Positions 367-64,000 of a stretch of 64,000 nt of DNA are shown in pieces; the first letter of the stretch is position 1, and the number at the start of each line of letters is the position of its first letter. The stretch lies in assembly GCA_028716965.1 (NCBI GenBank), contig JAQUOV010000002.1, positions 2,113-66,112 on the forward strand, written 5' to 3'. Origin of the DNA: Candidatus Omnitrophota bacterium (lineage in GTDB: Bacteria > Omnitrophota > Gorgyraeia > Gygaellales > Profunditerraquicolaceae). Under the pieces are notes generated by a model. It saw nothing but the letters and a program-made list of their open reading frames with translations, did not search any database and was not told the DNA's origin. The position numbers and the translations under genes are program-made.

Positions 367-2082
367 TTATTTATAATATTTATATAAATCATACTTCTTA
401 AGTTCATCCAAGCTTTTGATTATCGTCTGATGATTATCACAATGGTCACAATGTTCGTCGTATAGAATCTGGCCATTGAGAAATCTTATATTTGCATTTT
501 CTTTTAAATATTTAGCCTGTCTCCTCCAACGCCAGTATTCAATTGAATTCCAAATATCTTTAAATGAACATGCGTTTACATGTCCAACCGTACGCAGATG
601 ACAACAAAAACTCATATCGTATTTTGCAGGGATTAAATTAAAATACCAACCAATCGTACAGCCATGCTTAAGAAAGAAATCTTTTGACCAAGCACCAGTT
701 TTCTCGTCGTAATTCTCAAGCTGAAATTCAAAATTATCCACAAAGTCTATATTTTTTCTTTTAAAAATTCCTTTAATCGCTGGAATTTGTTCTTTTATAG
801 CCCTGACTTCTTCTGGCTTAAGTTGTAAAAACTTGTTCATTACATCCAAACGTATTAAATAGAATCTCACCGCATCGGGAGATATCTCGGCATCCATCTC
901 AGCCATATCTATGAGCTGATGACAGTTCATGGTATGAATAACATGAGTTACAATAAGCCTTGGCCTATCGCTAGCGCTTTCCTTTTTTAATTCCATAAAT
1001 CTTTTAAGGTTATTCTTGATCTTGTAAAATGTCTCAGGCGGCTGGATTGCCGATATTTTTTCATAGACATCTGCGGTGCCTGCGGGAAAACTGCAATAAA
1101 TTTCATTCACTCCCAATTCAATCACTTCTCTTGCCTTTTCTTCGTCAAATAAAATACCATTGGTGAAAAATAATACGCCCAGGCCTTTATTACGGGCATA
1201 CCGCAACATTGGCATAAAGTTCTCATACATTAAAGGTTCGCCATCACCCTGCAATATTATACCGTCGGTCATCATGCTGGAGGCATCATTAACAACCTCT
1301 TTAAAGATTTCAAAATCAAATTTACGATTAAGGAATTCCTCCGGATGTTTCACCTGAGGCGTATGCACCCAACAATGCTGGCACTTTGCATTACATCTGT
1401 GAAACGGGTCAAATACAATGGTCTGTGGCCCGATAAAAACCTGCTCACTTATTATTCCTAAGAGCCGCAATAAATCCTTTTCTCTATCTTCGTTGGCTTG
1501 TGCATGCAAAGCAACAGTATTAAGTATTTCCATCAACTCATTATCATCAATAGTAACGATAATCCCTTCAGGCCCAACTTGCTTCCTTATTTCTTCAACA
1601 TAGTTTTTAAAATTAACTGCAATATCTTTTACGGGAAAAACCTTAAACGAGACAGGAGGGAACTGATTTTTCTTGCCTAAAAGTTCAAATGAGAAATCAA
1701 CCATTCTATTCAAACGGGAAAAATTGTACCTGGAAAGGCTTATCTTTAAATGCACCTTTTCGCCTTTATGCGCTAAATTTCTTATCATGTCGGTATTTCT
1801 TTTAAAGCCTTCCTTATCGCCCGTTATTCTCTCATGCAACTCTTCAAAATCGGAGAAAATAATAACGGGCTGATTTTGATTCTTATTTATGTATTTGTTT
1901 GTAAGCAGCGAAGGGGCCGAAGCCAGATTATACCCAAACAAGGCTTTTATATGACGCGTAATAACTGCCGGATTAAATAAACGACGTTTTGCATCCCTTA
2001 AAGGAATGTGTTTCAATAGATTCTTGAAGATCCTGGCTTTTTTAAAGAATCCTTTTAAAGTGACCATACTCATTTTATTCAA
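367..2082 (-). CDS. Radical SAM protein with an N-terminal extension and a C-terminal SPASM-like Cys cluster; paralog of the C-terminal half of the 1063-aa protein
   Basis: CNAKCQHCW (CxxxCxxC). The C-terminal Cys-rich stretch is FCCHLRTVGHVNACSF...CDHCDNH. It aligns with the C-terminal half of ORF 22108-25299: LLRLLGIISEQVFIGPQTIVFDPFHRCNAKCQHCW against LIRLLGVIVEHPFIGPQTIVIDTFHKCNTNCIHCW. Confidence 0.7.
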   Translation of the reverse strand: MNKMSMVTLKGFFKKARIFKNLLKHIPLRDAKRRLFNPAVITRHIKALFGYNLASAPSLLTNKYINKNQNQPVIIFSDFEELHERITGDKEGFKRNTDMIRNLAHKGEKVHLKISLSRYNFSRLNRMVDFSFELLGKKNQFPPVSFKVFPVKDIAVNFKNYVEEIRKQVGPEGIIVTIDDNELMEILNTVALHAQANEDREKDLLRLLGIISEQVFIGPQTIVFDPFHRCNAKCQHCWVHTPQVKHPEEFLNRKFDFEIFKEVVNDASSMMTDGIILQGDGEPLMYENFMPMLRYARNKGLGVLFFTNGILFDEEKAREVIELGVNEIYCSFPAGTADVYEKISAIQPPETFYKIKNNLKRFMELKKESASDRPRLIVTHVIHTMNCHQLIDMAEMDAEISPDAVRFYLIRLDVMNKFLQLKPEEVRAIKEQIPAIKGIFKRKNIDFVDNFEFQLENYDEKTGAWSKDFFLKHGCTIGWYFNLIPAKYDMSFCCHLRTVGHVNACSFKDIWNSIEYWRWRRQAKYLKENANIRFLNGQILYDEHCDHCDNHQTIIKSLDELKKYDLYKYYK

Positions 2083-4135
2083 TCTCTTTGTAGCAATTTA
2101 CCATACCCGCACAATTCCTTTTACAGACCCTTATCTTTTCCCGCACCCTCTCCGCTCTTTCAGAAGTCCAGATCGCATGTACGTCTGAATCTTTAATATT
2201 TCCGATTGATTCCATCTCGCAGCAAAGGTAGACCTCTCCGGCAGGATTAACATGTAAGATATCATCCCCCAGATTGCATGGTGTTGATTTAACAAATTCC
2301 TCGGGATTTTGATAGTAAAGCTTAAATCGCTCCAGTTGCTCAATCTCTGTATCAATCGGATACTTGGCAATCTTTAAGGCTATCAGCTTATCAATCACCG
2401 CATGGACCTGGCCGATATCCTGCGGCCAAAGGAACTTATACGGTTCTTTTTTATACCAGGTATCATCAATAGGGAGCATATTGGGTCTCATTACAGCAAT
2501 GAAGGAAACGGTAAGTTTGTTATTTTTCGCCCATTCTGCCAATTCCGGGATACCTTTGAGGTTTTTTGCAGTGATAATGGTCTGGATACCTAGATTCTTG
2601 AGCTTCCCCCGATATTCGTTAAAATAAGCTACTGCCTGGATAACCCGCTGATAAGAATCTCTGAGGCCACGCAAGTAATTGTGCGTACCCTCATCAAGGC
2701 TATCAAGAGAAATCGAAAGAAAATTCAAACCAGAATCTGCAATTTTTCTTGCCATTCGCCTATTGATAAGATAGGCGTTAGTAACGGTTGAAAACCGGAA
2801 TCCCTGTTGAGCTACAAATTCAATAAAATTTAATATTCCTTTTTTTAGAAACGGTTCTCCGCCTGAAATATTCATCTCAAAAGGCCCGTCTACAAAATGC
2901 CTTAAACTTAATACAAAATTACTGAGTTCTTTTATGCTGGTTTCATGGCGATTCTTTTTTGTCTTCCAATAATAGCACATCTTACAGCGGAACATGCAGC
3001 GATGGGAAACCTCAATTACGCAGAATTTCGGTTTAACAATTTTATTTCTTGTCTCCATCGGCTCAATGTGCACTTTACTTTCAGGGATGGTTTGTATTGA
3101 TTTGACGTCACTGTCTGGGGGAAAAGCGCAAACAAAATTTATTACACAACATCTTTTGCCCGGCCCATGCTCATCAATCTTTTGTCTTAACTGGTTAGCC
3201 TTCTTAGAAAACCACAAACTCTTTATATCATCGCTATTTACATCTCCCAGCGGCTCTCCGCTCAGATAGATAGTGCCTTTTTCATCTAAATCTAAAATGT
3301 AATCATGCATCCTGTATTCTGTTTCCCGCATGAATTTATCCGGATCAACGTAATAAGATTTAAAGGCTTCAAGTTGAGAAATCGGATTCCATATCTTGTA
3401 TCCTTTTTTCCTAAGCTTGATTAACTCATCAATAAGCTTATGCGTTTTTGATATATTCTGAGGCCAAAGCTCTGCGTATGCGGCGCTCTTAAACCAATTA
3501 TGCCGGACAGGGACTAACCCATTTTCTAATAATGCCAAAAAGGAAATATTCTGAAATAAACCATTACGATTTACCCATTCCGTAAGCTCTAAAATATCAT
3601 CTAAATTCTTCTCCATAATAATGGCAAGGATACTTACCGTCAAACGACCCTTACAATATTTATCGATATATTCTATGGCTTTCATAGCCTTTGACAAAGT
3701 ACCCTCAACTCCTCTATAAAAATCATGCGTATTGCTTCTTAAGCTCTCCAGGGATATGGCCAGAACATCCAAATTCGAATCCGCTATTTTTTTTGCCATA
3801 TCTTCGTCTATAAGGGTTGCATTTGTGGAAATGATGGATTTAAACCCGCATCGATGTATAAAAGAACATAGATCCAAACACCAGTCTTTTAATAACGGCT
3901 CTCCCCCCATAACATTAATCTCAAGAGGGAATTTAATAAATTCAGACAAAGCGCTTACAAAATTCCTTGCCTGCTCATAAGTAATTTCGGCCGAATCACC
4001 CTGGCAACGCCAGGCAGTACACATTTTGCATTTTAAAACGCAACGATTTGAAATAACTATATCACAGAATCGCGGATAACCGGATTTTGCATCAATAATT
4101 GCATTGCGGTTTTCAAGAAATCTTTTAGCATCCAT
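2075..4135 (-). CDS. Fused double-domain radical SAM/SPASM protein (two tandem copies of the array-type domain in one polypeptide)
   Basis: Two CxxxCxxC motifs, CVLKCKMC near the N-terminus and CMFRCKMC at about residue 365. Each is followed by GGEPLL/GGEPFL and the TN(A/G)xLI block shared by the 5758-18455 paralogs. The C-terminal half has a full Cys cluster (CNLGDD...LCCEME...CKRNCAGMVNCY). The equivalent region of the N-terminal half lacks most of those Cys. Confidence 0.75.
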   Translation of the reverse strand: MDAKRFLENRNAIIDAKSGYPRFCDIVISNRCVLKCKMCTAWRCQGDSAEITYEQARNFVSALSEFIKFPLEINVMGGEPLLKDWCLDLCSFIHRCGFKSIISTNATLIDEDMAKKIADSNLDVLAISLESLRSNTHDFYRGVEGTLSKAMKAIEYIDKYCKGRLTVSILAIIMEKNLDDILELTEWVNRNGLFQNISFLALLENGLVPVRHNWFKSAAYAELWPQNISKTHKLIDELIKLRKKGYKIWNPISQLEAFKSYYVDPDKFMRETEYRMHDYILDLDEKGTIYLSGEPLGDVNSDDIKSLWFSKKANQLRQKIDEHGPGKRCCVINFVCAFPPDSDVKSIQTIPESKVHIEPMETRNKIVKPKFCVIEVSHRCMFRCKMCYYWKTKKNRHETSIKELSNFVLSLRHFVDGPFEMNISGGEPFLKKGILNFIEFVAQQGFRFSTVTNAYLINRRMARKIADSGLNFLSISLDSLDEGTHNYLRGLRDSYQRVIQAVAYFNEYRGKLKNLGIQTIITAKNLKGIPELAEWAKNNKLTVSFIAVMRPNMLPIDDTWYKKEPYKFLWPQDIGQVHAVIDKLIALKIAKYPIDTEIEQLERFKLYYQNPEEFVKSTPCNLGDDILHVNPAGEVYLCCEMESIGNIKDSDVHAIWTSERAERVREKIRVCKRNCAGMVNCYKEIE

Positions 4136-4137
4136 CG

Positions 4138-5739
4138 TTAGTGCCTTATCTTTTGGAAAACAGAGTCTACTTTGTTTTTTTCAGTTAAATTAGAATAAAG
4201 AAAAAATAACAAGTGTTCGTCATTAAAATTCTTTATTCCCCAAATACATTTTTCTAAAACTGTTTTTAACGAACGCTCTATCTGCCGGTTCTTATCATGC
4301 CAAGACAAACCATTCTCTTCATCAAACCCAAACTTTACATAACTGATAAAATCTTTTTCTGCATACTGGTTTACTTCAAAAATACGGTTTATTCCAAATC
4401 GAGCCGGCTGGTTATAAAATGGCGTATTCTCCCTTAAATCAAAATGGTTAGGATAAATGCGATTGATATACCTGCTATTTGAATTCAGGAACCTAACGGT
4501 AGCATCTATATCTTCATCCCTCTCGTGAGGCAAACCGCAAATTACTTCAACCCCAGTCCAGATTCCTGCTTCATGGGCCCATTTGAACGCATTCCTTAAT
4601 TGCCGTAAATCGATTCGCTTGTTAATATATTTTAATAAGCGGGGGCTGGCTGTTTCCATGCCGAATATTAATCTTATACATCCTGCCCTGCGCATTTTTA
4701 GGAGAGTTGATTTGTTTAAATTATCTGCCCTTGCACAATCGCTCCATAGAATTTTAAGTTTTTTTCTTATTATTTCAGAGCACAATGCATTTACAAACTT
4801 ACTGGAAATATTGATTGTGTCATTTAAGAATAAAAATCCCGTCGGATTATATAATTCTTTTAGCTGCATTAAATCAATGGTTATTTGCTCCGGGGTCAGT
4901 ACATCGCTAACCCGGGTGCTTGAAGAAACACAAAAAGCGCACTCGTAAGGACACCCCCTTATGAACCTATACGGCAAAACAAGTGTCTGAGACGCCAGAT
5001 ATCTATTCATTGTTTCCCGGATATCTTCAGAAAAATTCAAAATTTCTTCTTGCGACCTGTATTTTTCAATGGGCAATCCGGAAAAATCCGGCTGAATAAG
5101 CTTGGAAACAATATGCGACCTAATAATTTTACCGTCATCGGAAAACTCCAAGCCAGAGATATTATCTAACCGCTCATGATTTAAGATATGTTTTAAAAGA
5201 TAGTATAACGGGGCTTCCCCCTCGCCATAGATGATATAATCTATGTAGCGACCATCGTATTTATTTTTTAATAAATCAAGCCATAAGCTGTCTCCTCCTA
5301 TTATATTTAAACAGTTATATCTTTCTTTAATAAACCTTGTAAAAGCCACAAGGAACATCAAGTTGGTATCATTTTCTATATTATCCGATAGAGAGAGCAG
5401 CACGATTTGATTATTGCAAATCTTACATTTTAATGCTGCTTTTTCCATAATAGCAGAAAGATACGCATCAGCTCCACCACGCGCATAATCTAATATACGG
5501 GCAGTGTCTGATAAAATATCAGTATCAATCGCATCCTCAAGAGAACCCGGATAAGTATTATCATAATGAATCTTTATATTAAGATCATCTTGCTCAATCG
5601 ATATCCCATGAGAGCGCAGGAAACCAGAGATTAATCCTACACCTAAAGGCGGGATAAGGGTATAATTTAATTTCGCCGTAAACTGGCGCTTCCTAAAGAA
5701 ACTTGGTGACCTTATTAATTTAATACTTCGTTCTTCCAT
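4138..5739 (-). CDS. B12-binding-domain radical SAM protein (class B rSAM)
   Basis: N-terminal Rossmann-like B12-binding region followed by CPYECAFC (CxxxCxxC) at about residue 265. The architecture is typical of the cobalamin-dependent rSAM family. Confidence 0.65.
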   Translation of the reverse strand: MEERSIKLIRSPSFFRKRQFTAKLNYTLIPPLGVGLISGFLRSHGISIEQDDLNIKIHYDNTYPGSLEDAIDTDILSDTARILDYARGGADAYLSAIMEKAALKCKICNNQIVLLSLSDNIENDTNLMFLVAFTRFIKERYNCLNIIGGDSLWLDLLKNKYDGRYIDYIIYGEGEAPLYYLLKHILNHERLDNISGLEFSDDGKIIRSHIVSKLIQPDFSGLPIEKYRSQEEILNFSEDIRETMNRYLASQTLVLPYRFIRGCPYECAFCVSSSTRVSDVLTPEQITIDLMQLKELYNPTGFLFLNDTINISSKFVNALCSEIIRKKLKILWSDCARADNLNKSTLLKMRRAGCIRLIFGMETASPRLLKYINKRIDLRQLRNAFKWAHEAGIWTGVEVICGLPHERDEDIDATVRFLNSNSRYINRIYPNHFDLRENTPFYNQPARFGINRIFEVNQYAEKDFISYVKFGFDEENGLSWHDKNRQIERSLKTVLEKCIWGIKNFNDEHLLFFLYSNLTEKNKVDSVFQKIRH

Positions 5740-5757
5740 CGCCTATAGAACTTAAAG

Positions 5758-6783
5758 TTAAGCTATCTTTTCTTCCTCGTACCAGCAATTAATTATATGG
5801 TGGCAGTTTTTCTTACAAGAAGCCATCTCTCCCCTTCTCTCTTGCGCTTTTACAGAATACCAGATGTCCTTTATATCAGCATCCCTGATATTGCCTATAC
5901 TCTCCATATAAGGACAAAGTTTAATACTACCGTCGGGAGAAACGGTAAAGCTGTTTCCATTTGTTACATTGCAGGAATATTTCTTTACAAATTCATTTGG
6001 ATTGCGGAAATATGATTTAAAAAGCTCAAGCTGCGAAATAGGGTTATTTATTTTGTCCGCTGCGCCTTGTGCTAAAGGATCTTTTAATTTAATTAAACTG
6101 TCAATAACCATGTTAACCTCATTTAATGCTTTTGGCCAAAGAAAAGCGAATTCGTCTCTTCTATACCATTCATCCTGAGGTGCGCTATGGAAAGGCTGTA
6201 CTACCGCTTGAAAGAATACAGAACGAATCCGATGATCTTTTTTTACCCAATCGGCCAACGCCAGGAGTTCAGTCAAATTTGGCGCCATTATTACCGTATC
6301 AATTGCTATCTCTAAGGAAGAACGGAATTTATCAAGGAATGTTATTGCATCCATTAATTTTTTATGGCTATCAGGCTTCCCTCGTAGATAATCATGCGTT
6401 TCTTTATTCAAACTATATAATGTCAAGGCAATATAATTTAACCCGGCCTCAACAAGCCGCTGCGCACATCCTGCATCGATAAAATAACCACTTGTTGCTA
6501 ATGATGTCCTGAATCCGTTTCTGTTGGAAAAACTGATGAGCTCTATAAGTTTATCCGGAAACAACAAAGGCTCGCCGCCGCCGAATATCATATTAAAATC
6601 AGGGGCAGCGAATTTACCTAAAGAAAGGATGAAATTCTTCCAATCAGCTTGGCTTGGCCTTCTGATACCGGATTCATCGTTTTGCCAAAGCCGGCACATC
6701 CTGCAGCGCAAGGAACAACCAAGCGTAAGTAATAAAATGCAGGCTTTAGGGATATTTTCCTGGTGTTTATTTAATGTTTCCAT
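5758..6783 (-). CDS. Radical SAM/SPASM-domain protein, tandem-array paralog
   Basis: CSLRCRMC, GGGEPLL, SGYFID, and a C-terminal cluster C..C...CxxxCxxxxxC (CNVTNG...LCPYME...CKKNCHHIINCWY). Confidence 0.75.
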   Translation of the reverse strand: METLNKHQENIPKACILLLTLGCSLRCRMCRLWQNDESGIRRPSQADWKNFILSLGKFAAPDFNMIFGGGEPLLFPDKLIELISFSNRNGFRTSLATSGYFIDAGCAQRLVEAGLNYIALTLYSLNKETHDYLRGKPDSHKKLMDAITFLDKFRSSLEIAIDTVIMAPNLTELLALADWVKKDHRIRSVFFQAVVQPFHSAPQDEWYRRDEFAFLWPKALNEVNMVIDSLIKLKDPLAQGAADKINNPISQLELFKSYFRNPNEFVKKYSCNVTNGNSFTVSPDGSIKLCPYMESIGNIRDADIKDIWYSVKAQERRGEMASCKKNCHHIINCWYEEEKIA

Positions 6784-6807
6784 TGCCGATAAGCCTTGTT
6801 TTAATTT

Positions 6808-8238
6808 TCATCTATTTGTATTTTGCCAATATGGTTTTAAATTATAATCTAAACATGCCTTAGTTAACCTCTTATGCCTATTAAGCCTTATCTCTAAAGT
6901 GTTGGTTAAATCTTTAGTAAACCAAGCAAACCAGTCATTTATCAGTGTCGTATCTATACCAAAATCTGGCGCATGCTCATATAAATACATCCCAGGCTCA
7001 ATACTACAGATATTCAAGCTATTTACTTTATCTATCCATTTCGCATTCTTTCTTATGAACTGGATGTTCTTGTCGATATCCTGTTCTGTTTCTCCCGGGA
7101 AACCAACAATAAGATTGATTTCAACACGGATATCTGCTTTTTTAGCTTTTATAATCGAATCTCGCGCATCGCGAACAGTTATGCCTTTTCTCATCAGTTT
7201 TAAAACTCTATCTGAAAGACTTTCGCAGCCAAAGGTAAGCCCTCCGCATCCTGCCTGCCTCATTTTCTTAAACAACTTACTGCTCATATCCCTTCTTACT
7301 GCAGCCTGGCCTCCCCATGCGATACCTGTCTTTTGTTGAAGCAACAGATTGCAAAATGTATCCAAAATACCTAAATTGCCGTTAATTAATAAATCACAGA
7401 ACTCAAATCTTTTTCTTTTATATTTTTGTACATGATGTTGGATTTCGTCAAACACTGACTCGGGGTTACGCCAACGATAGGGTTTCTTTATGTAGAAATC
7501 TCGGCAAAACGCGCAGGCCCGGATACAGCCTCTGCTGCTGATTAAAGGCAAAAGGTCTTCCTGAGAATAATAATCTAAATTAAATTCTTCAAAAGTAGGA
7601 AAAGGTATTTCATTAATATTTATGCGGTTTTCTTCCCTCCCTTTAAGGCACAAAGGATGATCGAGCGGATTATCCTTCCAGGTGATATATTCCAAACACG
7701 GCTGCGCAGTTTTTCCTTGCCGTAAATCGCTTAAAAGGCAAAACAAAGGATATTCCCCTTCTCCAAGGACAAAATAATCTATGCAATCCTTTCTAAACCA
7801 GAAACGGCTTTCTTTGTAATTCACTCCTGGTCCGCCAATTATTATTATTACGTCCTTGCCTATTTTTTTTCTCAACCTCAGAAGAAGCGCATTAAGAAAA
7901 GGGATAGAAGCAAAAGTTGCTGAAAATCCAATTATTTTCGCCTGGAATGAAAGTATCCTGTCAGACCAGTTTTCCAGTTGGCTGAATAAAACTTTTGGTG
8001 CTTCTCCTAAGGCCCAAAAGTTAAAGTCCTGCGTAATCCATTTCTCCTGTAACTCTTTATCTGCTTGGTGGAATATCTCAATATTTAAATCGAATATTTT
8101 AGCGGGGAAACCTTTTGTTTTTAAGAAAGTAGCCAAGTAGGCGATACCCAGGGGAGGAGCATCCACTCCCCAAGGAGGCGCCTGAATTAATAAAATCTTT
8201 TCCTGAGAGCTAATTTCACTCATTAGATTCCGTTGCAT
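6808..8238 (-). CDS. B12-binding-domain radical SAM protein inserted in the tandem array
   Basis: CIRACAFC at about residue 238 after a B12-binding-like N-terminal domain. An alternative ATG at 8223 (M6) would give an 8-bp overlap with the upstream stop. Confidence 0.65.
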   Translation of the reverse strand: MQRNLMSEISSQEKILLIQAPPWGVDAPPLGIAYLATFLKTKGFPAKIFDLNIEIFHQADKELQEKWITQDFNFWALGEAPKVLFSQLENWSDRILSFQAKIIGFSATFASIPFLNALLLRLRKKIGKDVIIIIGGPGVNYKESRFWFRKDCIDYFVLGEGEYPLFCLLSDLRQGKTAQPCLEYITWKDNPLDHPLCLKGREENRININEIPFPTFEEFNLDYYSQEDLLPLISSRGCIRACAFCRDFYIKKPYRWRNPESVFDEIQHHVQKYKRKRFEFCDLLINGNLGILDTFCNLLLQQKTGIAWGGQAAVRRDMSSKLFKKMRQAGCGGLTFGCESLSDRVLKLMRKGITVRDARDSIIKAKKADIRVEINLIVGFPGETEQDIDKNIQFIRKNAKWIDKVNSLNICSIEPGMYLYEHAPDFGIDTTLINDWFAWFTKDLTNTLEIRLNRHKRLTKACLDYNLKPYWQNTNR

Positions 8239-9223: not shown

Positions 9224-9229
9224 ATATCC

Positions 9230-10207: not shown

Positions 10208-10210
10208 GGG

Positions 10211-12225: not shown

Positions 12226-12231
12226 CTTTCT

Positions 12232-13206: not shown

Positions 13207-13207
13207 G

Positions 13208-14290: not shown

Positions 14291-14300
14291 AACTATTGGC

Positions 14301-15338: not shown

Positions 15339-15348
15339 AATTTAAAAT

Positions 15349-16347: not shown

Positions 16348-16357
16348 ACATATCTCC

Positions 16358-17401: not shown

Positions 17402-17423
17402 AACTTTTCCTTTATTTAAATTT

Positions 17424-22103: not shown

Positions 22104-22107
22104 ATAG

Positions 22108-46852: not shown

Positions 46853-46873
46853 ACTTTTTGTTTTAATTAAAAA

Positions 46874-47761: not shown

Positions 47762-47905
47762 ATTTTTTATGATAAATCAAATAAAACTATAAGCGTCCAA
47801 CAGCTTAGAAACTTTCTTTTCCATAGAAGCAAACCTTTTCAATCATATCAGCGTTACTTTAAAACTAAAGTTTTCAAGGTTTATTGGAATAAGCATCAAA
47901 AAAAA

Positions 47906-49711: not shown

Positions 49712-49719
49712 GTCGGTCG

Positions 49720-55428: not shown

Positions 55429-55678
55429 AATCGGCTCCTTTAAAAAATAAGTTTCACTGTTTATCTAAAAACTTTGTGCCCATGCAAGTGCACCTGTATT
55501 CCTGAAACCTGTTCATCTTAACCTTTTACCGCGCTGTATATCATGATGAGACTTAAAAACTCTTACCTTTAGGTCAATAAGCAACTCCGCAATCCTGCAT
55601 AAAACATTTCTTTTTGTATTTTTAAGAAAAGATCTCCATAATTATATGTATCCGGGACAAATATCTGCACATCTTCCA

Positions 55679-56758: not shown

Positions 56759-57245
56759 TCTTAGTCAAGACGGTATTAATAAATTCTTTTGTCCCTTTGC
56801 CTGCTTCAGGGGCCCAAGATGCAAACTCTCTGCCCTTGGACCCTCTAAAGGGCCCTCTAATTATTTCATGGAAAACAACAAAATCAGACAGAGGGATAAC
56901 GGTATGCCACATATTTTCCTTGACCCTGCACAAAGGATAACCTTGAGAACTATTTTTTTTCACAAGGATTTTTTCTACGACTAGTCCGTTTGCATTAAAA
57001 ATAACAAGATAGAAAGCCCCTTCCATAACATGTATTGATTCGTCTTTTCCTTTATGCCTGTGCGGCCTTATATAGCTGTCTTTACATAAAACAATAACCA
57101 TTTCCTGTAACGGGTCTTTTTCGTCTTTATGCATACACAACCTTGTCCTTCTAAGAGGGGCCAGTTGCGCCTGATGTTTTAATCTCTTGATTTCTTCTTT
57201 ATTTATTCTTACGGTCCGGCATTTGCTAAATTCTTTTTTTTTCAT
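56751..57245 (-). CDS. Cupin-fold protein (WbuC-like)
   Basis: 164 aa with an RPHRHKG...H motif and beta-rich composition. This class of small cupin is common in O-antigen loci. Confidence 0.35.
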   Translation of the reverse strand: MKKKEFSKCRTVRINKEEIKRLKHQAQLAPLRRTRLCMHKDEKDPLQEMVIVLCKDSYIRPHRHKGKDESIHVMEGAFYLVIFNANGLVVEKILVKKNSSQGYPLCRVKENMWHTVIPLSDFVVFHEIIRGPFRGSKGREFASWAPEAGKGTKEFINTVLTKNA

Positions 57246-57289
57246 CCTTGGGTACGATTATGTTTTTGTTTACTTCTTTAACTTTCCGG

Positions 57290-58387
57290 TTAAATTATGC
57301 GTTTTATCTCTTTTAAGGTTTCAATGACATATAGCAAGTCATCCTTTGACTGATCAGGGCCGCTTGGCAAAATAAGACCGGACCCGGCGTACAATTCTGA
57401 TCGCTTATAACGCTTACCTTGAGCGCCAGGCAGCAATTCACAAATTGGGAGCTCATACGGCTTAGCCAGAATCCCCTTACGTTTAAGCAGTTGGATCAGT
57501 TTATCTCTTTGCACGCATAACGCTTCTACCCACAAAGGAAGCTCGCCTTCTTCTACCCGCACATCTATCAAATTAATATAATCCAGGCCTTTTAATCCGT
57601 TTTGATATAAAATATAGTTGTCTCTTATGGTTTTGATCTTTTCCCTTACTCTTTTAATCTGGCTTAAGCCGATAGAAGCTAATATATCGTTAAACTTAAA
57701 ATTAAACCCCGTGATACCCTGCTTAAGCAATAAACCATCCTTTTTTGTAATACCATAATCCCTGATTGCTCTTAATTTATCAAATAGTTTCTTACTTCTA
57801 GTAACTACCAAACCGCCTTGCACTGTGGTAATAAGTTTTGTAATCGCCAAGGAAAATATACCCATCTCTGATTGGGTACCCAGACAGCCGGAAGAATTCC
57901 GCGAACATAACGCTTGCGCAGCATCCTCTATTACTGTGATGCCGTGTCTTCTTCCAAGCTTATTAATAGCCCTTATGTCAGCGGCCCTGCCGTTTAGATG
58001 TACTGGTATGATCGCTTTAGTTTTTCCGGTTATGGATTTTTTTACTTGTTCTACGTCAATAAGTGGCCTTAAGTATTCGACATCAACTAATTTTATCTTA
58101 GCACCCAAAAGCCGCGGGGCAAGCGCCGTAGCTACAAATGTTAAATTGGGAATTATAATTTCATCTCCCGGTTTAATGCCGCAGGCAAGTAAAGACATAA
58201 GCAAGGCGGAGCTACCATTAATAGTCAATACCGCATATGGGACATCGAGAATCTCAGCTAAACAGCCTTCCAGCTTCTGCGTCACTGGTCCTTGCGTAAT
58301 ATGGCCAGCCAAGATAGATTGTCCAATTTTTTTTGTCTCTTTTTCCCCAAGATCTGTCTTCCACCAGGGGATCATATATTCTTTCAT
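57290..58387 (-). CDS. DegT/DnrJ/EryC1/StrS-family PLP-dependent sugar aminotransferase
   Basis: N-terminus MIPWWKTDLGEKE...ILAGHITQGPVTQKLE and the overall length are typical of the family. Confidence 0.7.
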   Translation of the reverse strand: MKEYMIPWWKTDLGEKETKKIGQSILAGHITQGPVTQKLEGCLAEILDVPYAVLTINGSSALLMSLLACGIKPGDEIIIPNLTFVATALAPRLLGAKIKLVDVEYLRPLIDVEQVKKSITGKTKAIIPVHLNGRAADIRAINKLGRRHGITVIEDAAQALCSRNSSGCLGTQSEMGIFSLAITKLITTVQGGLVVTRSKKLFDKLRAIRDYGITKKDGLLLKQGITGFNFKFNDILASIGLSQIKRVREKIKTIRDNYILYQNGLKGLDYINLIDVRVEEGELPLWVEALCVQRDKLIQLLKRKGILAKPYELPICELLPGAQGKRYKRSELYAGSGLILPSGPDQSKDDLLYVIETLKEIKRII

Positions 58388-59379
58388 AATCCATTCCGGG
58401 ATTCCAGAATCCGGCTTAACCTTGGACCTAAAAGTAAATTAAAATCTATTGTTGATGCCGACCAGCAGTGTTGACATGAGCAAGGGAGCTGTAAATTATC
58501 AAGAGTTATTTTAAGGTTTTGGCCGGCCGTAACCAGGTAATTCTGCGATCCCGGGAACATGTCACAGATAAATATTTTACCATCAGGACTTAAAAATGTG
58601 GAGAATAAACTTACCAAGCAGGGTATTTTTCTTGGGCACGGCCAATGGTAAAGGTGTCTTAAGCCTGCCAAGCTATTAATAATACGATTGTTCCCTTTAG
58701 ATTTTTCTTTTATGAGAAAAGAAACGGCTTCCCTGAAAGCTGCGGCTGCCGGAAGATCAGAAGAGATATCTTTCCCGATATTACCACAATGCGTTTGGTC
58801 TGCCGGCTGGAAAGACACCTCAATATTATATTCCTTCGCAATATCAAGGATATGAGCAAGGTGGGCAGAAAATACATTATACTTTGAAATTACGGTGGTT
58901 AGGCTTACTTTCAAATTCTCCCTCTTGCATGCCTCTATAGCCTCTATGACCTTGTCATAAGTTCCCTCACCTTTAACCCGGTCGTTTATTTCTTTCGGCC
59001 CGTCAAGACTTAATTTTAACCTATCAATGCTTTTGATCTCTCCTATTCTTTGTTTTACAAATATGCCATTAGAATTCATTGACACAAACATTCTTTTATT
59101 TTTACAAGATTTAATGACCTGCCCGAGATCATCCCTTAAAAGAGGCTCTCCACCTGAAATAACAATGAATCTTGTGCCTAAGCGATAAAATTCATCAATC
59201 AAAGAAAGCAGTTTATCCGTTCCTAATTCTCCGGTTTTTCTTTCGTGGTAGCCACAATACCTGCAGCTTAAATTGCATCTATAGGTAATGTGTAAGACTG
59301 TAATTAAAGGAACCTTTCTTCTGGATATAACCGCTTTGGCGGCTTTCCAATAAATAGGTATTCTATCGAGAAAATTCAT
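58384..59379 (-). CDS. Radical SAM/SPASM protein (type B-prime)
   Basis: CNLSCRYCG, SGGEPLL, and C-terminal CPRKIPC...ICDMF...CSCQHCW. Related to the 53706-54749 product. Confidence 0.65.
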   Translation of the reverse strand: MNFLDRIPIYWKAAKAVISRRKVPLITVLHITYRCNLSCRYCGYHERKTGELGTDKLLSLIDEFYRLGTRFIVISGGEPLLRDDLGQVIKSCKNKRMFVSMNSNGIFVKQRIGEIKSIDRLKLSLDGPKEINDRVKGEGTYDKVIEAIEACKRENLKVSLTTVISKYNVFSAHLAHILDIAKEYNIEVSFQPADQTHCGNIGKDISSDLPAAAAFREAVSFLIKEKSKGNNRIINSLAGLRHLYHWPCPRKIPCLVSLFSTFLSPDGKIFICDMFPGSQNYLVTAGQNLKITLDNLQLPCSCQHCWSASTIDFNLLLGPRLSRILESRNGL

Positions 59380-60619
59380 GATTACCTATCCCCTCTGCTA
59401 CGGTCTTGACCGCCTTGGCAATCTTAGATAAATCCGAATCTTCCATCTCGGGGTAAACCGGTAAATGAACCATTCGTTTAACCGCATCAAAAGCATTTTT
59501 GCATTCATTTGCCTCCTGGAACCCTAATAAATGCGGTCCTACGGACATATTACCGCCATGGGTGTCTATCCCTATTTTACGTAACCGGCTACGAAAAAGC
59601 TGACGGTTATCCGTCCGAATTACAAAGCTTGAGTAAATATTCTCTCCGGAACCAGCCGCTACAGGGAGTTCTATGCCGGCAATATCTTGCAGATATTCAA
59701 GAAGCTTATTTCCATTATAAATTCGTTTTTGATTTAACAGTTCCAGCCGGAGTAATTGGGAAAGACCGATCTTGCCATAAAATGGAGTCGGTAAATAAGA
59801 AATTCCCTTTGAAGATGATTTATCATTACCCGGCGATTCACTGGTCAAAGCTTCTATTAAGTCTATACCGCAGCGGTCAAATAAATTTAAGACAAAGGAC
59901 ATAATGGAATCCCAAAACCAGGGTCTGGTTACAAAACGCATTCCCGCGGCGTAAAGGATATTCTTTGTTAAAGCAATACTGCCGATACAGGGCGACTGTT
60001 TCATCCATGATGAGATTTTTTCTGCAAGGGCATATGACCCTGTGACAGCCATACCCATACCTAAAACCGGAATGTTTTTATGCGGGGAAAATGAAAATAT
60101 CGCCGCCTGGCCAAAACTCCCTGCCCGCTTCCCTGAATAAGATGCCCCGCAGGATTGGGCGCAATCCTCTATAATAACCAGATTATACCTGGCAGCTATC
60201 GCCTTTATACGTCTCATATCGCATACACGGCCATATAGGTGGACCGGAAATATTGCTACCGTAGATGAAGTAATAACTGGTTCTATCCTATCGGTATCGA
60301 TACAGTATGTCTTTGGATCAATATCCACAAACCGCGGTTGCAATCCAAACTCTCGGAAAATTGCAGGGATGCAATGAAAAATCAAAGACGGCAATATTAC
60401 TTCTCCGCCTTTCGGCAATTCCAATGCATGCAATATCCATTTTAACGCTACCCTTGCTGAAGGAGTAGGCACAGCACAGGAAACACCAATATAGTCGGCA
60501 AACTGCTTGGTAAACACGGCAAGGCTATCTTTGCTTCCAGCATTATGCCGGCGAGTAAACAAAGTTGACCGGATATCGTTAATTGTAAGTGAAGGAATAA
60601 AACGAGGGATATTCTTCAT
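59363..60619 (-). CDS. DegT/DnrJ/EryC1/StrS-family PLP-dependent aminotransferase (second copy)
   Basis: 418 aa. The family-typical order of Gly-rich PLP-binding segments is present, and it is a paralog of 57290-58387 by position and length. The assignment is weaker than for the first copy. Confidence 0.55.
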   Translation of the reverse strand: MKNIPRFIPSLTINDIRSTLFTRRHNAGSKDSLAVFTKQFADYIGVSCAVPTPSARVALKWILHALELPKGGEVILPSLIFHCIPAIFREFGLQPRFVDIDPKTYCIDTDRIEPVITSSTVAIFPVHLYGRVCDMRRIKAIAARYNLVIIEDCAQSCGASYSGKRAGSFGQAAIFSFSPHKNIPVLGMGMAVTGSYALAEKISSWMKQSPCIGSIALTKNILYAAGMRFVTRPWFWDSIMSFVLNLFDRCGIDLIEALTSESPGNDKSSSKGISYLPTPFYGKIGLSQLLRLELLNQKRIYNGNKLLEYLQDIAGIELPVAAGSGENIYSSFVIRTDNRQLFRSRLRKIGIDTHGGNMSVGPHLLGFQEANECKNAFDAVKRMVHLPVYPEMEDSDLSKIAKAVKTVAEGIGNHEFSR

Positions 60620-60631
60620 GGTCGGGTATTC

Positions 60632-61717
60632 TTAAGCCAGGTGTATCTGGTCGTTAGAATTATTATCTCGTTTTTCACAATACTGACAGGTCGATAATGC
60701 CTCTAAATTAAGTGCGACCTGACTACGGAAACCCCTGTAATTTTGGCTATTCCAGATATTCTTAAAACCGGTGTATTGGCCGTCCTGAAATAAGTTTCCC
60801 ATTGCATAAAGCTGTCCTATATCAAAACAACAGGGGATTACTTTACCTGAATAGCGTATCAAAGTTTCCTCCCAAGGGATGCGGCAGGAATTAAACCGTT
60901 TTCGCTCCCGGCTGCTGTAACAAAATCTTTTATTTATAGGCAACAGTTCATTAATCGAACTAAACCTGCCCAATTTATCAATATTCAAACGGTCGGCCTG
61001 CAGCTTTAGATAGGTCATTTTATTCACACCCAAATCTTTTGCGATTCTGGAAATATCATTAATTTCATTTTCATTTTCTTTCATTACTATGAATTGCAAT
61101 TCAATAAAGGGCAACTCAGAATGGAGATTTTTTTTCTCCCCTATCAAAGCCTTTATATTGTTTATTACTCTTTTAAAATAATCTTTCCCGTGGCAAAGCT
61201 TATAAGTTCGTTCGGATGCACCATCGCAAGAAACAATTAAATAATCTAATCCTGAAGTTACAACCTTACGGGATTTATCCCCTCCCAAAAGAGACAAATT
61301 TGAGCTGAGGACAACAAAGATATCTTTCTTTTTGGCATATTCAATCATAAGAAAAATATCATTATTCATCAAAGGCTCGCCATAATTCCATAGGCGCAGC
61401 GTAATAAGGGTATCTCCTATGTCATCGATAATCTTGCGATAATTCTTAAAAGGCATATCTTTGCTTCCAGATACCAAACCATCATCCGCATACAAATCTG
61501 TGAATTGTTCGCATTTAATGCACTGATAGTTACAATCCCCGGTCGGTTCAATAAGGATATTAAAAGGTAGCCCTAGATTTCTCTTAACTCTAAAGAACAA
61601 AGATAGCTCAACTAAAATAAAATTCATTACCTTGCGGTAATTTAATAAAATCTTTAACGCCGCCTTTCTAAAAATATAGAGTTCCGGAAAACTGTAATTT
61701 CTGCGTAGTATTTTCAT
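60632..61717 (-). CDS. Radical SAM/SPASM protein (type A-prime)
   Basis: CNYQCIKC. Near-collinear homolog of the 52599-53687 product. Confidence 0.65.
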   Translation of the reverse strand: MKILRRNYSFPELYIFRKAALKILLNYRKVMNFILVELSLFFRVKRNLGLPFNILIEPTGDCNYQCIKCEQFTDLYADDGLVSGSKDMPFKNYRKIIDDIGDTLITLRLWNYGEPLMNNDIFLMIEYAKKKDIFVVLSSNLSLLGGDKSRKVVTSGLDYLIVSCDGASERTYKLCHGKDYFKRVINNIKALIGEKKNLHSELPFIELQFIVMKENENEINDISRIAKDLGVNKMTYLKLQADRLNIDKLGRFSSINELLPINKRFCYSSRERKRFNSCRIPWEETLIRYSGKVIPCCFDIGQLYAMGNLFQDGQYTGFKNIWNSQNYRGFRSQVALNLEALSTCQYCEKRDNNSNDQIHLA

Positions 61718-62418
61718 TTTTTTAAGCGTATATCATAGGCCAGCCTCCATAAAGACGCCACTACTCCGGCAATATTAGCAAAGCTAAAAGCTTTAGTCTT
61801 TACGCATTTATCGAATTTATCTTCCACCGGCACTTCTATATAGGAACAACCGGCCTTTATTAATTTTACCAGAATCTCAGCCTGAAAGGCATAGCTATCT
61901 GTTTTAAGATCAATAGAATTGACTGCTGATCTTTTAGAGAGTACATAATGATTGTAATATTTCAAATTCAAGCCAAATATAAGATTTACAATGACAGTAA
62001 AAGCCCTGGAAACGCTCCTCCTAAAAAAAGACCTTTCCCGGGCATTGGTCATGTAAGGGATGACCAAATCCTTAACACCAGCTAAAGCAAATATCTTATC
62101 CAAGTTCTCCTCGGTAATGTCGTTTTTTCCGTTTATACGAATCAGGTACTCCATTTTTGCCAAGCTGATCCCTTTTTTATAACTACCTCCGATGCAAATC
62201 GGCTTTTTATGGTGGAACACCTGAATGCAATTATAAGTATCGGCCAATTTATCGGTTATTTCAGCTGTCCTATCCGTACTTCCATCGTCAAATATGATAA
62301 TCTCATACCGCGTAAACTTTTTCTTGAGCGCATTAAGAATAATTTTTATGGTATCTTCAATGCCTCTTTCTTCATTTAAAGCCGGGACAATAACGGAAAT
62401 AGAATTTTCACCTGACAT
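61714..62418 (-). CDS. GT2-family glycosyltransferase (polyprenol-phosphate sugar synthase-like, DPM1/ArnC type)
   Basis: SVIVPALNEE...IIIFDDGSTDRT is the GT-A fold DxD-containing N-terminus. The 234-aa soluble form resembles dolichyl- or undecaprenyl-phosphate hexose synthases. Confidence 0.6.
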   Translation of the reverse strand: MSGENSISVIVPALNEERGIEDTIKIILNALKKKFTRYEIIIFDDGSTDRTAEITDKLADTYNCIQVFHHKKPICIGGSYKKGISLAKMEYLIRINGKNDITEENLDKIFALAGVKDLVIPYMTNARERSFFRRSVSRAFTVIVNLIFGLNLKYYNHYVLSKRSAVNSIDLKTDSYAFQAEILVKLIKAGCSYIEVPVEDKFDKCVKTKAFSFANIAGVVASLWRLAYDIRLKK

Positions 62419-64000
62419 ATTTTTTTAACCTTATAATAAAGAATACGATCATGAAGAAGGCTGTACTCAACGAAATAGCCATGCCGATATTCCAAATTGG
62501 CGGCCTGAATCTTAACCTAATTTGGTGTTTTCCGTTTTCCAGCCAAATTCCACGCTGGCAGTAATTCACCCGGTATATTTCTATCCTTTTCTTTCCATCA
62601 AAGGCTTCCCATCCCGGAAACCAGACCTCTGTCAGGACCATCATCGAAGGTATATTTATTTCAACCTCTATTTTTATTTCATTTGGATTTGAGAAATCTA
62701 ACCTTTTGATAATATTATTATTTTGAAAATCTTCAAAATTAAAAGGAGAACTTGCAATATGTGCTTTTCTTGCAAGATCTTTATAATTACGGCTCATGTA
62801 AAGAGCTTCCCTTAAATCGCCCGATACCAATTTCCTAAATTCTTCCTTTTCATCAACAAAAACTATATTATTAATAGTATATACTCTGGGGATAGCCTCC
62901 TTATTTATATGGAGATACTTCGCGGATTCCCCGTTGATTGGAAAACATTCTTCCTGTCGGAATATCCTGCCGGAATGACGGGCAAGAAAATATTTTACTG
63001 AGAAATTATTTAGAAATTCGGTGTTAAGGGGCAAATTTCCTCCTCCTTCGTAAAATATAGATTGATCCATGGGGCGAGCATATGCCGCCTCCATGGCCTC
63101 CTTAAATCTTTTTTCCAAAGGAAAAGGCGGCTCCCCCATAAGCGCAAACCCTTGATTTAAATAAACCAGATTATCATAAAAAGGGTACTCCGAAGCAATG
63201 CGCATAGAATGATCGATTACGGGAAATACCTCTGATATCATCTGTTTGAACATAGCGTGTTCAGAAGGTCTTATAAACCTGACATTATGTGGCAAGAAAG
63301 CGCGCGAGTTTGTTTGGGCTTCATTAAAGGTACCGCCATAAAATGCTTTAGTTCCGAAGAAAAAGGACTCCAAGATTACGAGGATTGCCATTAGGTAACC
63401 GAATTTTTTTATAGAAAGAATTCGAATTCCTAAGATTATAAATACCGACACTATAAGCCAATAGAGAAGAGAAAAAACAACCGGCCTTTTCTCCACATAC
63501 CCGTTAATCAACCTGAAGAATAAAGCCGGCTTTAATTCATAGGATTCTTTATTAATATTGATTGCGCTGGAGCATTGATTAATGCGCCAGGCATTACTAT
63601 AGAGAAAACAATGGTCTTGATCGTTCCAATAACCAATCCGGCCTTCTCCGGAGACAGGAAGAATCCACAAGAATTTATCAGGGGAAATGTCAACCTTAAA
63701 CTCAGACCATCCTTTTTCCAAAACGGCATACTTTTTAATCAACACACCTCCTGTCGGCAATAGATTATGATTATCGGCAAAGCGTATTTCCCCTTGCGAC
63801 GCCCCATCAAAGATCACCCGTATTTTCTTCACTCTGGCTGTCTTAGGGGTATATACTCCAACAGGTTCATGCAGAGAAAAAAAACCATCTGCTTTGGTAT
63901 CGAAGCCGGCCGACCAGGTATTTCGCCCTTCTTTATGCCCGTATAAGAATAAGACTCCGGTTATCGCCAGAATAGAAATAAGGACGTATACCAGAGACAA
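62408..64000 (-). CDS. Partial CDS whose 5-prime end is beyond the right edge; membrane protein with a large soluble domain and a terminal TM helix (C-terminal portion of a larger polytopic protein, possibly YfhO/GT-C-like)
   Basis: The reading frame is open at position 64000; the first codon is TTG, not a true start. It has a hydrophobic block at about residues 170-215 and a final TM helix (WNIGMAISLSTAFFMIVFFII). Confidence 0.35.
   Translation of the reverse strand: MSLVYVLISILAITGVLFLYGHKEGRNTWSAGFDTKADGFFSLHEPVGVYTPKTARVKKIRVIFDGASQGEIRFADNHNLLPTGGVLIKKYAVLEKGWSEFKVDISPDKFLWILPVSGEGRIGYWNDQDHCFLYSNAWRINQCSSAININKESYELKPALFFRLINGYVEKRPVVFSLLYWLIVSVFIILGIRILSIKKFGYLMAILVILESFFFGTKAFYGGTFNEAQTNSRAFLPHNVRFIRPSEHAMFKQMISEVFPVIDHSMRIASEYPFYDNLVYLNQGFALMGEPPFPLEKRFKEAMEAAYARPMDQSIFYEGGGNLPLNTEFLNNFSVKYFLARHSGRIFRQEECFPINGESAKYLHINKEAIPRVYTINNIVFVDEKEEFRKLVSGDLREALYMSRNYKDLARKAHIASSPFNFEDFQNNNIIKRLDFSNPNEIKIEVEINIPSMMVLTEVWFPGWEAFDGKKRIEIYRVNYCQRGIWLENGKHQIRLRFRPPIWNIGMAISLSTAFFMIVFFIIRLKKYVR

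Follow-up and report, generated by a model that had tools for sequence, protein, structure and literature searches.

Wzm/Wzt and TagGH exporters pair an ABC-2 permease with an ATPase that has an all-beta C-terminal extension. In the O9a-type Wzt of Escherichia coli, this extension is a carbohydrate-binding domain (CBD) that recognizes the finished end of the chain. Radical S-adenosylmethionine (rSAM) enzymes that tailor carbohydrates, among them BtrN, DesII, AprD4, BlsE, NeoN, and GenK/Fom3, combine an rSAM core with a twitch/SPASM or B12-binding domain and occur as one to a few per small-molecule pathway. Here we describe a 64,000-nucleotide (nt) stretch from a Candidatus Omnitrophota bacterium (assembly GCA_028716965.1, contig JAQUOV010000002.1, positions 2,113 to 66,112; hereafter the window) in which 27 rSAM genes, with local matches to BtrN, BlsE, and DesII, are linked to a polymer exporter of the Wzm/Wzt type, and two of the encoded enzymes carry predicted glycan-type binding domains. 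We consider it probable, with modest assurance, that this is a conserved Omnitrophota locus for a lipid-linked surface glycan that would be remodeled by radical chemistry in the cytoplasm before Wzm/Wzt exports it.

A preliminary description of the window had listed 27 rSAM proteins with 28 domains, and the open reading frame (ORF) list, a CX3CX2C regular expression, and PF04055 all bear this out. Every one of the 27 start coordinates corresponds to an ORF, all on the minus strand. Among the 48 ORFs of at least 150 amino acids (aa), the motif occurs 28 times and is confined to these 27, whereas residue shuffles of the same ORFs average 0.23 motifs and reach 2 at most; the extra motif arises because 2075..4135 holds two, along with two PF04055 stretches. 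PF04055 (Radical_SAM) exceeded its gathering threshold in 27/27 (38–142 bits; cut-off, 29.5). The rSAM ORFs sum to 35,355 nt, which is 55% of the window, 57% of its ORF sequence, and 99% of 367..25299; the earlier estimate of about 40% radical coding share was too low. A hydrophobic-segment check showed that all 27 rSAM proteins are soluble, with no convincing membrane-spanning segment in any of them. At 55454..55626 are the remains of one more rSAM gene, whose counterpart is intact in the related locus L076 (a 286-aa gene at 6293..7153); at least 28 rSAM genes were therefore present here in the ancestor. Pfam also confirmed the neighbors named earlier: Wzm, Wzt, two PMT_2 GT-C glycosyltransferases, a YfhO-like protein, a GT2 enzyme, Polysacc_deac_1, two DegT proteins, one Aminotran_3 protein, two carbamoyltransferases, and two methyltransferases.

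The density of rSAM genes is far outside the norm for exporter loci, as the preliminary description had proposed. In 62 ordinary Wzt loci (454 kb), taken from a metagenome Wzt scan in which Wzt was matched in the ATPase domain only, there were 2 rSAM ORFs, both in one locus, giving 0.044 per 10 kb compared with 4.2 in the window; this is a rough control because the detector was a hidden Markov model (HMM) of the window's own rSAM cores, but the difference is still about a hundred-fold. A full-text literature search turned up no account of the array or of polysaccharide loci dense in rSAM genes. A recent Omnitrophota preprint names radical SAM solely as one Pfam domain in a co-occurrence analysis of giant-protein domains. 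A paper on the Kuenenia S-layer glycan, considered as a precedent for an rSAM cluster, was rejected; its text contains neither "radical" nor "gene cluster". No paper found and no NCBIfam rSAM equivalog assignment explains the locus. It differs from the closest known systems in the number and organization of the rSAM genes, in a new enzyme family that we call family A, in a new triple mutarotase-like tail of Wzt, and in the sharing of the tail domain with enzymes.

Feature coordinates are collected in Table 1, and genes are named below by their lower coordinate. From 28913 down to 367, intergenic distances are 67 nt or less and many genes overlap, which fits one operon of ~28.5 kb. Its order is Wzm, Wzt, 22108, 19920, 18623, an ORF of 47 aa, the family-A array with two class-B genes, 367, and a possible GT-B glycosyltransferase; a full GT-B gene is present in the equivalent module of the related locus L075. 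The exporter resembles Wzm/Wzt and TagGH systems in its ABC-2 permease and its ATPase with an all-beta extension, and in related loci a PF00953 transferase adjoins the pair. In NCBIfam, the pair comes nearest to the models for Wzm, Wzt, and TagH, in each case below the equivalog cut-off. Unlike the one small jelly-roll CBD of ordinary Wzt proteins, however, the tail here is ~700 aa long and consists of three mutarotase-like domains, for which glycan binding is predicted only. In contrast to ordinary Wzm/Wzt loci, the tail domain is also found on two rSAM enzymes, and the operon is otherwise almost purely rSAM.

This ~225-aa domain, traced with blastp and domain HMMs, is present three times in Wzt, twice in 22108, and once in 19920. 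It has the all-beta, galactose-mutarotase-like supersandwich fold of carbohydrate-enzyme type, and no Pfam family matched it. The related locus L075 has the same domain architecture as the window, and the 1354-aa Wzt of L009 has five copies. A domain-bearing gene directly follows the long Wzt in 5/5 HMM-scanned loci that extend into the next gene (the window, L010, L011, L074, and L075); in L077, which the domain-HMM scan did not include, an ortholog of 22108 (79%) is directly after Wzt. No ORF with a copy was found among the 62 ordinary Wzt loci. The module common to the exporter and the rSAM enzymes is the strongest evidence here for a predicted glycan-handling pathway, and it suggests that 22108 and 19920, at least, may act on the assembled, exportable molecule. 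The earlier view of a glycan-type locus is also upheld by the Wzm/Wzt pair itself, the sugar aminotransferases, WbuC, the O-carbamoyltransferases, and the GT-C and GT2 enzymes, in addition to the carbohydrate-enzyme fold shared by the exporter and two rSAM proteins. Other fusions agree with this: family-A domains occur in double and triple forms, a 19920-like and an 18623-like protein are joined in L008, and tetratricopeptide repeats (TPRs) are joined to 4138-like proteins in L006 (11967..14123 and 17831..19885) and L008 (12528..15011), with no such fusion in the window. The TPR fusions hint at a possible scaffolded multi-enzyme complex.

An all-against-all comparison sorted the 27 rSAM proteins into four sequence groups. 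Family A comprises 12 proteins with 13 domains (11 single-domain proteins and the two halves of 2075) at 33–50% mutual identity, and a class-B-like group comprises six proteins that are 23–30% identical. The TIGR04317-like group B contains 367, 18623, 22108, 52599, 55679, and 60632 (367 and 22108 are 44% identical, 52599 and 60632 51%), and the MoaA/PTO1314/NirJ-like group C contains 36037, 53706, and 58384. The N-terminal ~220 aa of 367 are common to 22108, with aa 69–222 matching aa 563–712 of the larger protein. PF13186 (SPASM) exceeded its cut-off in 16/27 rSAM proteins and fell just below it in 55679 (21.2 versus 21.5 bits); the Pfam scan gave no PF13186 match in 367, 16358, 53706, or 58384.

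Family-A proteins share the CX3CX2C cysteines, GGE, the histidine and glycine of HDxxRG, WP, and WxS as invariant residues, and their auxiliary region has five conserved cysteines (C..GX4C..CX3CX5C), a reduced SPASM/twitch-like form. The CX3CX2C motif begins at residues 17–48, so no extra N-terminal domain is possible. The first two auxiliary-cluster cysteines have been lost from the N-terminal half of 2075..4135. A family-A profile searched against 1.84 billion cluster representatives recovered 2,042 proteins at E ≤ 1e-30, among them double and triple fused forms; one fused family-A protein from elsewhere is P0131 (1034 aa, three stretches). The product of 9230..10207 is 100% identical to an NCBI protein from a Candidatus Omnitrophica bacterium metagenome-assembled genome. 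Homologs of 9230..10207 at E ≤ 1e-20 numbered 88, and 9/9 with an organism name were Omnitrophica or Omnitrophota. Judged from these profiles and alignments, family A is a large, unnamed rSAM family. Within the array, ORF 15349..16440 overlaps 16358..17401 by 83 nt and its first ~31 residues align with no paralog; its true start is probably the internal Met at ~16347.

The array is not an accident of one genome because the contexts of its homologs repeat it. On the 95-kb sequence Ga0376277_0001473 (L076 and L077), the whole 64 kb recurs in the same order at roughly 61–92% protein identity, with two extra small genes and one extra rSAM gene, so the locus is conserved from end to end in this relative. 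L011 is collinear with 15349..38480 of the window at 68–89%. At greater distance, ~15 rSAM genes are packed into 21 kb both in L006, part of an Omnitrophota contig of 1.26 Mb, and in L008, from a JGI contig of 146 kb; these genes match the window's paralogs one to one, mostly in the same order, at 49–71% identity. The L006 and L008 orthologs of 5758 are 63–64% identical and those of 6808 54–55%. Each of the ten consecutive family-A genes has its own ortholog at 52–88%, in collinear order, in L006, L008, L009, L011, L075, and L077. Since the paralogs are only 33–50% identical to one another, the duplications are therefore old, and each copy has been kept for a role of its own.

The core module with Wzm and the long Wzt is kept in L009, L010, L011, L075, and L077. 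L009 has a PF00953 transferase of WecA/MraY type, a flavin adenine dinucleotide (FAD)-dependent protein of amine-oxidase/CrtI type, Wzm, and the 1354-aa Wzt, followed immediately by the array. L075 has a GT-B gene, PF00953, the FAD enzyme, a carbamoyltransferase, Wzm, the long Wzt, orthologs of 22108, 19920, and 18623, the 47-aa ORF, and family A. PF00953 lies upstream of Wzm in L009, L074, and L075. The FAD gene stands between the two in the same loci (L009 548..1840, L074 7937..9244, L075 5655..6980) and has no counterpart in the window, nor do the GDSL/SGNH hydrolase genes seen in related arrays (L006 2646..3932 and 15530..16840). The long Wzt of L074 (P0101, on Ga0335071_10000187) has the same three-domain tail and carries the NCBI label "Patescibacteria group bacterium"; either the bin or the label is wrong, or the module extends beyond Omnitrophota. 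The right half of the window is shared by close relatives only and is less stable in others; it is rearranged in L001, which was the one relevant locus in a scan of genome contigs for the class-III aminotransferase. The preliminary description had treated the locus as one unit. Uniform GC content (0.37–0.40 across the window) and full collinearity in a relative agree with this and led us to reject a mosaic of unrelated operons for the locus as a whole; the mosaic idea survives in a weak form, that of a modular locus with a conserved core and a plastic accessory half. From these comparisons, the locus is a widely conserved core (Wzm, Wzt, and rSAM genes) with a more plastic half predicted to serve sugar tailoring and transfer.

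These data bear on the level at which the enzymes act. To our knowledge, all characterized sugar rSAM enzymes act on small molecules, and the pathway could be one for a glycan in which the rSAM enzymes act on soluble nucleotide-sugar or cyclitol monomers that are later assembled and exported, with no editing of the polymer. The right half of the window alternates rSAM genes with DegT and WbuC genes, as nucleoside diphosphate-sugar pathways do; the rSAM and DegT pairing recalls the logic of BtrN/BtrS; and the family-A auxiliary region aligns with the twitch domain of BtrN, which 60632 also matches weakly. However, 13 position-conserved domains would imply about 13 monomers, compared with one or two visible cytoplasmic glycosyltransferases. 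In addition, the large binding-type domains of 22108 and 19920 have homologs in the exporter, the component that deals with the assembled product, and the array lies in the exporter operon, apart from the sugar-nucleotide genes. We therefore regard action on monomers throughout as possible but rather unlikely; monomer-level tailoring is plausible for the right half and less so for the 13-domain array.

The preliminary description had listed six B12-binding rSAM proteins; four are firm by PF02310 (6808, with 51 bits, 34630, 37104, and 45437, the only ones above threshold), and 19920 and 4138 are probable members. The PF02310 score of 19920 is 23.4 bits versus a cut-off of 32.1, but its alignment with the HpnJ and BchE models runs nearly from one end to the other. 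No Pfam B12 model matched 4138, but weak alignments connect its N terminus to the B12 regions of 6808 and 19920 and to the BchE/HpnJ profiles, there from positions ~81 and ~118. Strict anaerobiosis and dependence on cobalamin are a reasonable expectation from the enzyme class.

Tes, GrsA/B, HpnP, HpnR, and HpnJ are rSAM enzymes that modify lipids. By analogy, a polyprenyl carrier or another isoprenoid or alkyl chain could be cyclized, cross-linked, methylated, or saturated here, and the product would be an exported glycolipid whose tail is radically altered. HpnJ is the closest relative of 19920. The Tes homolog GDGT-MAS (7tol) ranked second, at 62 bits, when the family-A profile was searched against solved structures. 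The CrtI/amine-oxidase-type FAD enzyme is beside a polyprenyl-phosphate transferase in L009, L074, and L075, and the 13 paralogous domains may approximate the number of isoprene units in bacterial carrier lipids. Omnitrophota have also been reported with genes for membrane-spanning lipids (10.1101/2023.10.20.563219). Nevertheless, the scores are far below cut-offs: HpnJ (TIGR03471) matched 19920 at 241 bits versus 577.6 and Tes scored 67 versus 450, and SkfB, CteB, BlsE, and SuiB show a similarity comparable to that of GDGT-MAS. The rSAM proteins lack membrane-spanning segments, the domain shared with the exporter has a carbohydrate-enzyme fold, and the window has no gene for isoprenoid synthesis. 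The hopanoid pathway (HpnH/I/J/K/O/P/R) uses a similar toolbox of a GT2 enzyme, a deacetylase, a class-III aminotransferase, and class-B rSAM enzymes, but HpnH reached only 79 of 225 bits, the deacetylase belongs to a different family (PF01522), 19920 has an extra domain, and the window contains neither a squalene-hopene cyclase nor other hopanoid genes. A lipid target is, in our judgment, distinctly unlikely.

Reaction types were sought in family models and solved structures. The NCBIfam scans took in 19 of the 27 rSAM proteins and 20 other window proteins, and 0/19 rSAM proteins reached an equivalog cut-off, a further difference from the known carbohydrate-tailoring enzymes. Besides HpnJ, the best case was AhbD, at 116 versus 500 bits for a single family-A protein; 2075 reached 151 bits, summed over its two domains, against AhbD/NirJ/AhbC-type models with cut-offs of 500–650 bits. 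Against solved structures, the family-A profile found SkfB (72 bits) and GDGT-MAS, and then CteB, BlsE, and SuiB. Single-sequence and profile searches together returned generic rSAM relatives only (also viperin and MoaA), none of which discriminates reaction type.

Partial matches to AhbD and NirJ2 (family A) and BchE (class-B group) as the best models, with NirJ and AhbC also near the top, might point to a cofactor or tetrapyrrole-type pathway. A precedent comes from groundwater Elusimicrobia, a sister lineage in which up to 13 rSAM genes, some with B12-binding domains, cluster near nitrogenase paralogs and are thought to reduce a tetrapyrrole (10.1101/765248). The partners there are NifH/D/K-like and the loci have no Wzm/Wzt or sugar genes (10.1101/765248), whereas here the linkage to Wzm/Wzt and sugar genes is conserved. 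Scores three- to five-fold below the cut-offs and the absence of tetrapyrrole, nitrogenase-like, or cofactor genes from the window and the related loci make such a pathway very improbable.

A peptide product has to be weighed because SPASM/twitch rSAM enzymes are predominantly peptide maturases, and the structure matches include SkfB, CteB, and SuiB among the best. In a pathway for peptides made on ribosomes and modified after translation (RiPPs), the 47-aa product of 18455..18598, or another protein, would be the substrate of the SPASM-type enzymes and would leave through the ABC-2 transporter. The 47-aa ORF is more strongly conserved than its neighbors: its identity is 87% with L011 and 68% with L075, whose Wzt is only 41–47% identical, and gene calls in L075 and L077 include it. 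Neither L006 nor L008 has it, however, although both arrays are intact, and it is conserved evenly along its whole length, with no split into a leader and a variable core. It was the sole credible candidate when the gaps between genes were examined for precursor peptides. The early position of the CX3CX2C motif in family A leaves no room for an N-terminal RiPP recognition element, Pfam detected no PqqD-like protein or leader peptidase in the window, and the exporter, whose tail has a sugar-enzyme fold, belongs to the Wzm/Wzt/TagGH type. We consider a RiPP-like pathway improbable; candidate roles for the 47-aa product are those of a small subunit, a membrane-surface helix, and a peptide substrate.

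The glycan reading that we favor can be set out as a working model. A polyprenyl-phosphate-linked glycan would be started by a WecA/MraY-type PF00953 enzyme encoded outside the window and extended by few glycosyltransferases, and 22108 and 19920 would dock on it through their mutarotase-like domains. The family-A paralogs would share one type of hydrogen abstraction, each acting at a residue or position of its own; candidate outcomes are oxidation to a keto sugar, epimerization, and deoxygenation or decarboxylation. The class-B enzymes would add C-methyl groups or rearrange rings or the carbon skeleton, and the three Wzt domains would check the finished glycan and gate its export. Meanwhile, the right half would provide unusual amino, carbamoyl, and methyl sugars through rSAM and DegT pairs, WbuC, methyltransferases, and NodU-type O-carbamoyltransferases, with alternating rSAM and DegT enzymes following a route from alcohol to ketone to amine, as in BtrN/BtrS. 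The GT2, EamA, and GT-C/YfhO proteins would transfer or decorate at the periplasmic face, by analogy with Arn, Gtr, and CsbB-YfhO.

A more specific version, which we put forward tentatively and think somewhat doubtful, is that the core operon would edit a lipid-linked polysaccharide once it is finished, one residue at a time. Each of the 13 collinear family-A domains would abstract a hydrogen at one position of the chain, with epimerization, oxidation, or deoxygenation as the result, and the class-B enzymes would add C-methyl groups or contract rings. The chain would be kept on the enzymes by the mutarotase-like modules, which would also let the exporter proofread the product. Polytheonamide maturation, in which a few iterative enzymes perform many radical epimerizations and methylations on one peptide before export, is similar in concept, but here there are many dedicated paralogs, no recognizable leader-peptide machinery, and a glycan-type context. 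If true, this would be a polymer-level modification of glycans not yet known, the carbohydrate counterpart of polytheonamide-type maturation.

Several points weigh against the glycan model. The glycan product is predicted from gene content, and the mutarotase-like fold is also known in the YidC P1 domain and a viral capsid protein. Because the family-A proteins carry no sugar-binding module of their own, action at the polymer level is argued by association only. The window has few cytoplasmic glycosyltransferases (one GT2 enzyme and the doubtful GT-B fragment) and no initiating transferase (PF00953 or PF02397). The failure of all 19 scanned rSAM proteins to reach an equivalog cut-off leaves no reaction type from family models, and the detector behind the baseline was built from the window itself. 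The conserved 47-aa ORF lies within the operon, among enzymes of the SPASM/twitch kind that most often modify peptides.

Outside the core operon, a divergent block on the plus strand (29172..34616) is 74–92% identical and collinear in L011 and L077. It includes a hydrophobic 88-aa ORF (weak DUF1616 match, E 3.6e-4; DNA 79–81% identical in the same two loci), probably a small membrane protein missed by the 150-aa ORF filter. Further along, the 738-aa product of 40112..42328, for which neither Pfam nor NCBIfam has a family, shows 75% identity in L001 and has a 740-aa counterpart at the same position in L076; it could be an unrecognized GT-C enzyme, ligase, or polymerase. The "sulfatase" 43278 is more likely a periplasmic transferase or hydrolase of the alkaline-phosphatase superfamily than a true sulfatase. 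An anaerobic sulfatase-maturating system was rejected because this protein lacks the formylglycine motif; no anSME model was among the NCBIfam matches listed for the 19 rSAM proteins scanned, the listing for some of them being confined to the best 25 matches or to those at E ≤ 1e-15. The 44680..52605 block is 61–87% identical and collinear in L076, where the gene order of the sugar-tailoring run 55679..62418 is also the same. In this run, the WbuC cupin (139 bits; cut-off, 42) was the sole NCBIfam equivalog assignment among all 39 proteins scanned. The DegT aminotransferases are closest to PseC, ArnB, and DesI, and the carbamoyltransferases are NodU-type. The GT2 enzyme 61714 (234 aa, no hydrophobic segment; weak ArnC match, E 1.6e-9) abuts the YfhO-like GT-C protein, and an EamA transporter and two PMT_2 proteins are also in the window.

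Table 1. Features of the 64-kb window, in order of position
Feature	Position (nt)	Strand	Basis or remark
Core operon	367..28913	-	
N terminus (79 aa) of an ORF crossing the window start; possibly a GT-B glycosyltransferase fragment and the operon's last visible gene	1..237	-	Glyco_transf_4, weak, E 0.041
TIGR04317-like group-B rSAM	367..2082	-	PF04055, 54 bits; 44% identical to 22108
Natural fusion of two family-A domains	2075..4135	-	Two PF04055 stretches and SPASM
Class-B-like rSAM, divergent N-terminal domain	4138..5739	-	No Pfam B12 match
Family-A rSAM/twitch-like enzyme	5758..6783	-	Pfam and family-A alignment
B12-binding class-B rSAM inside the array	6808..8238	-	PF02310, 51 bits; PF04055
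Ten consecutive family-A rSAM genes	8216..18455	-	PF04055 in 10/10; SPASM in all except 16358
Family-A rSAM	8216..9223	-	
Family-A rSAM	9230..10207	-	
Family-A rSAM	10211..11245	-	
Family-A rSAM	11242..12225	-	
Family-A rSAM	12232..13239	-	
Family-A rSAM	13208..14290	-	
Family-A rSAM	14301..15338	-	
Family-A rSAM	15349..16440	-	
Family-A rSAM	16358..17401	-	
Family-A rSAM	17424..18455	-	
Very basic 47-aa ORF (MAETLWQKF...GIDWRKFSR; MAETLWQKFMKHNKTGGFFYALKRGFKYIAWRNICISKGIDWRKFSR)	18455..18598	-	Between 18623 and the family-A array
rSAM-SPASM, group B	18623..19852	-	Pfam, NCBIfam
HpnJ/BchE-like class-B rSAM with one C-terminal mutarotase-like copy (aa ~508–728)	19920..22103	-	TIGR03471, 241 bits; domain HMMs; blastp to Wzt tail
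Mutarotase-like copy of 19920	19923..20591	-	
1063-aa rSAM-SPASM with two N-terminal mutarotase-like copies (aa ~28–241, ~320–499)	22108..25299	-	Pfam, blastp, domain HMMs
Mutarotase-like copies of 22108	24577..25221, 23776..24345	-	
Wzt-type ABC ATPase, 940 aa: ATPase (aa 1–235) and three tandem ~225-aa mutarotase-like beta domains	25303..28125	-	PF00005
Mutarotase-like copies of Wzt	25303..27420	-	
Wzm ABC-2 permease, first gene of the operon	28131..28913	-	PF01061; partial match to galactan Wzm
Divergent block	29172..34616	+	
Polysaccharide deacetylase	29172..30239	+	
PP-loop ATPase-like protein	30236..30964	+	
PMT_2-like GT-C	31204..32679	+	
88-aa membrane ORF	32680..32954	+	
O-carbamoyltransferase	32955..34616	+	
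B12-rSAM	34630..36033	-	68–71% identical in L011, L077
rSAM-SPASM	36037..37155	-	68–71% identical in L011, L077
B12-rSAM	37104..38480	-	68–71% identical in L011, L077
O-carbamoyltransferase	38462..40102	-	
738-aa polytopic membrane protein	40112..42328	-	
TauE permease	42510..43262	-	
Alkaline-phosphatase-superfamily "sulfatase", N-terminal membrane anchor	43278..44687	-	No C/S-x-P-x-R formylglycine motif
Methyltransferase	44680..45450	-	
B12-rSAM	45437..46852	-	
EamA transporter	46874..47761	-	
Membrane-anchored beta-propeller	47906..49711	-	
Class-III aminotransferase	49720..51129	-	
PMT_2 GT-C	51130..52605	-	
rSAM-SPASM, group B	52599..53687	-	
MoaA/PTO1314-like group-C rSAM	53706..54749	-	
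S-adenosylmethionine-dependent methyltransferase	54766..55428	-	Pfam
rSAM gene remnant	55454..55626	-	tblastn 67–73% over two short pieces; decayed pieces of a 286-aa rSAM gene (motif CNLKCSYC); within the 250-nt gap 55429..55678
rSAM (sugar-tailoring run)	55679..56758	-	
WbuC cupin (sugar-tailoring run)	56751..57245	-	
DegT (sugar-tailoring run)	57290..58387	-	
rSAM (sugar-tailoring run)	58384..59379	-	
DegT (sugar-tailoring run)	59363..60619	-	
rSAM-SPASM (sugar-tailoring run)	60632..61717	-	
GT2 (sugar-tailoring run)	61714..62418	-	
YfhO-like GT-C membrane protein, cut by the window end	62408..64000	-	PF09586, 30 bits; hydrophobic segments

An exporter operon made up almost entirely of rSAM genes suggests a surface polymer with chemistry beyond that of any characterized glycan. 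Possible changes include those at unactivated carbons, such as C-methylation, epimerization at positions without an acidic proton, and carbocycle formation. Family A would represent a phylum-wide, large, and unannotated rSAM family with position-specific paralogs, and the mutarotase-like module common to the ABC exporter and the enzymes upstream of it in the pathway offers a testable model of substrate hand-over and export proofreading. Omnitrophota cells are ultra-small and often depend on a host; their surface presumably serves to attach them to prey or hosts, and the locus provides a lead to the envelope of this phylum.

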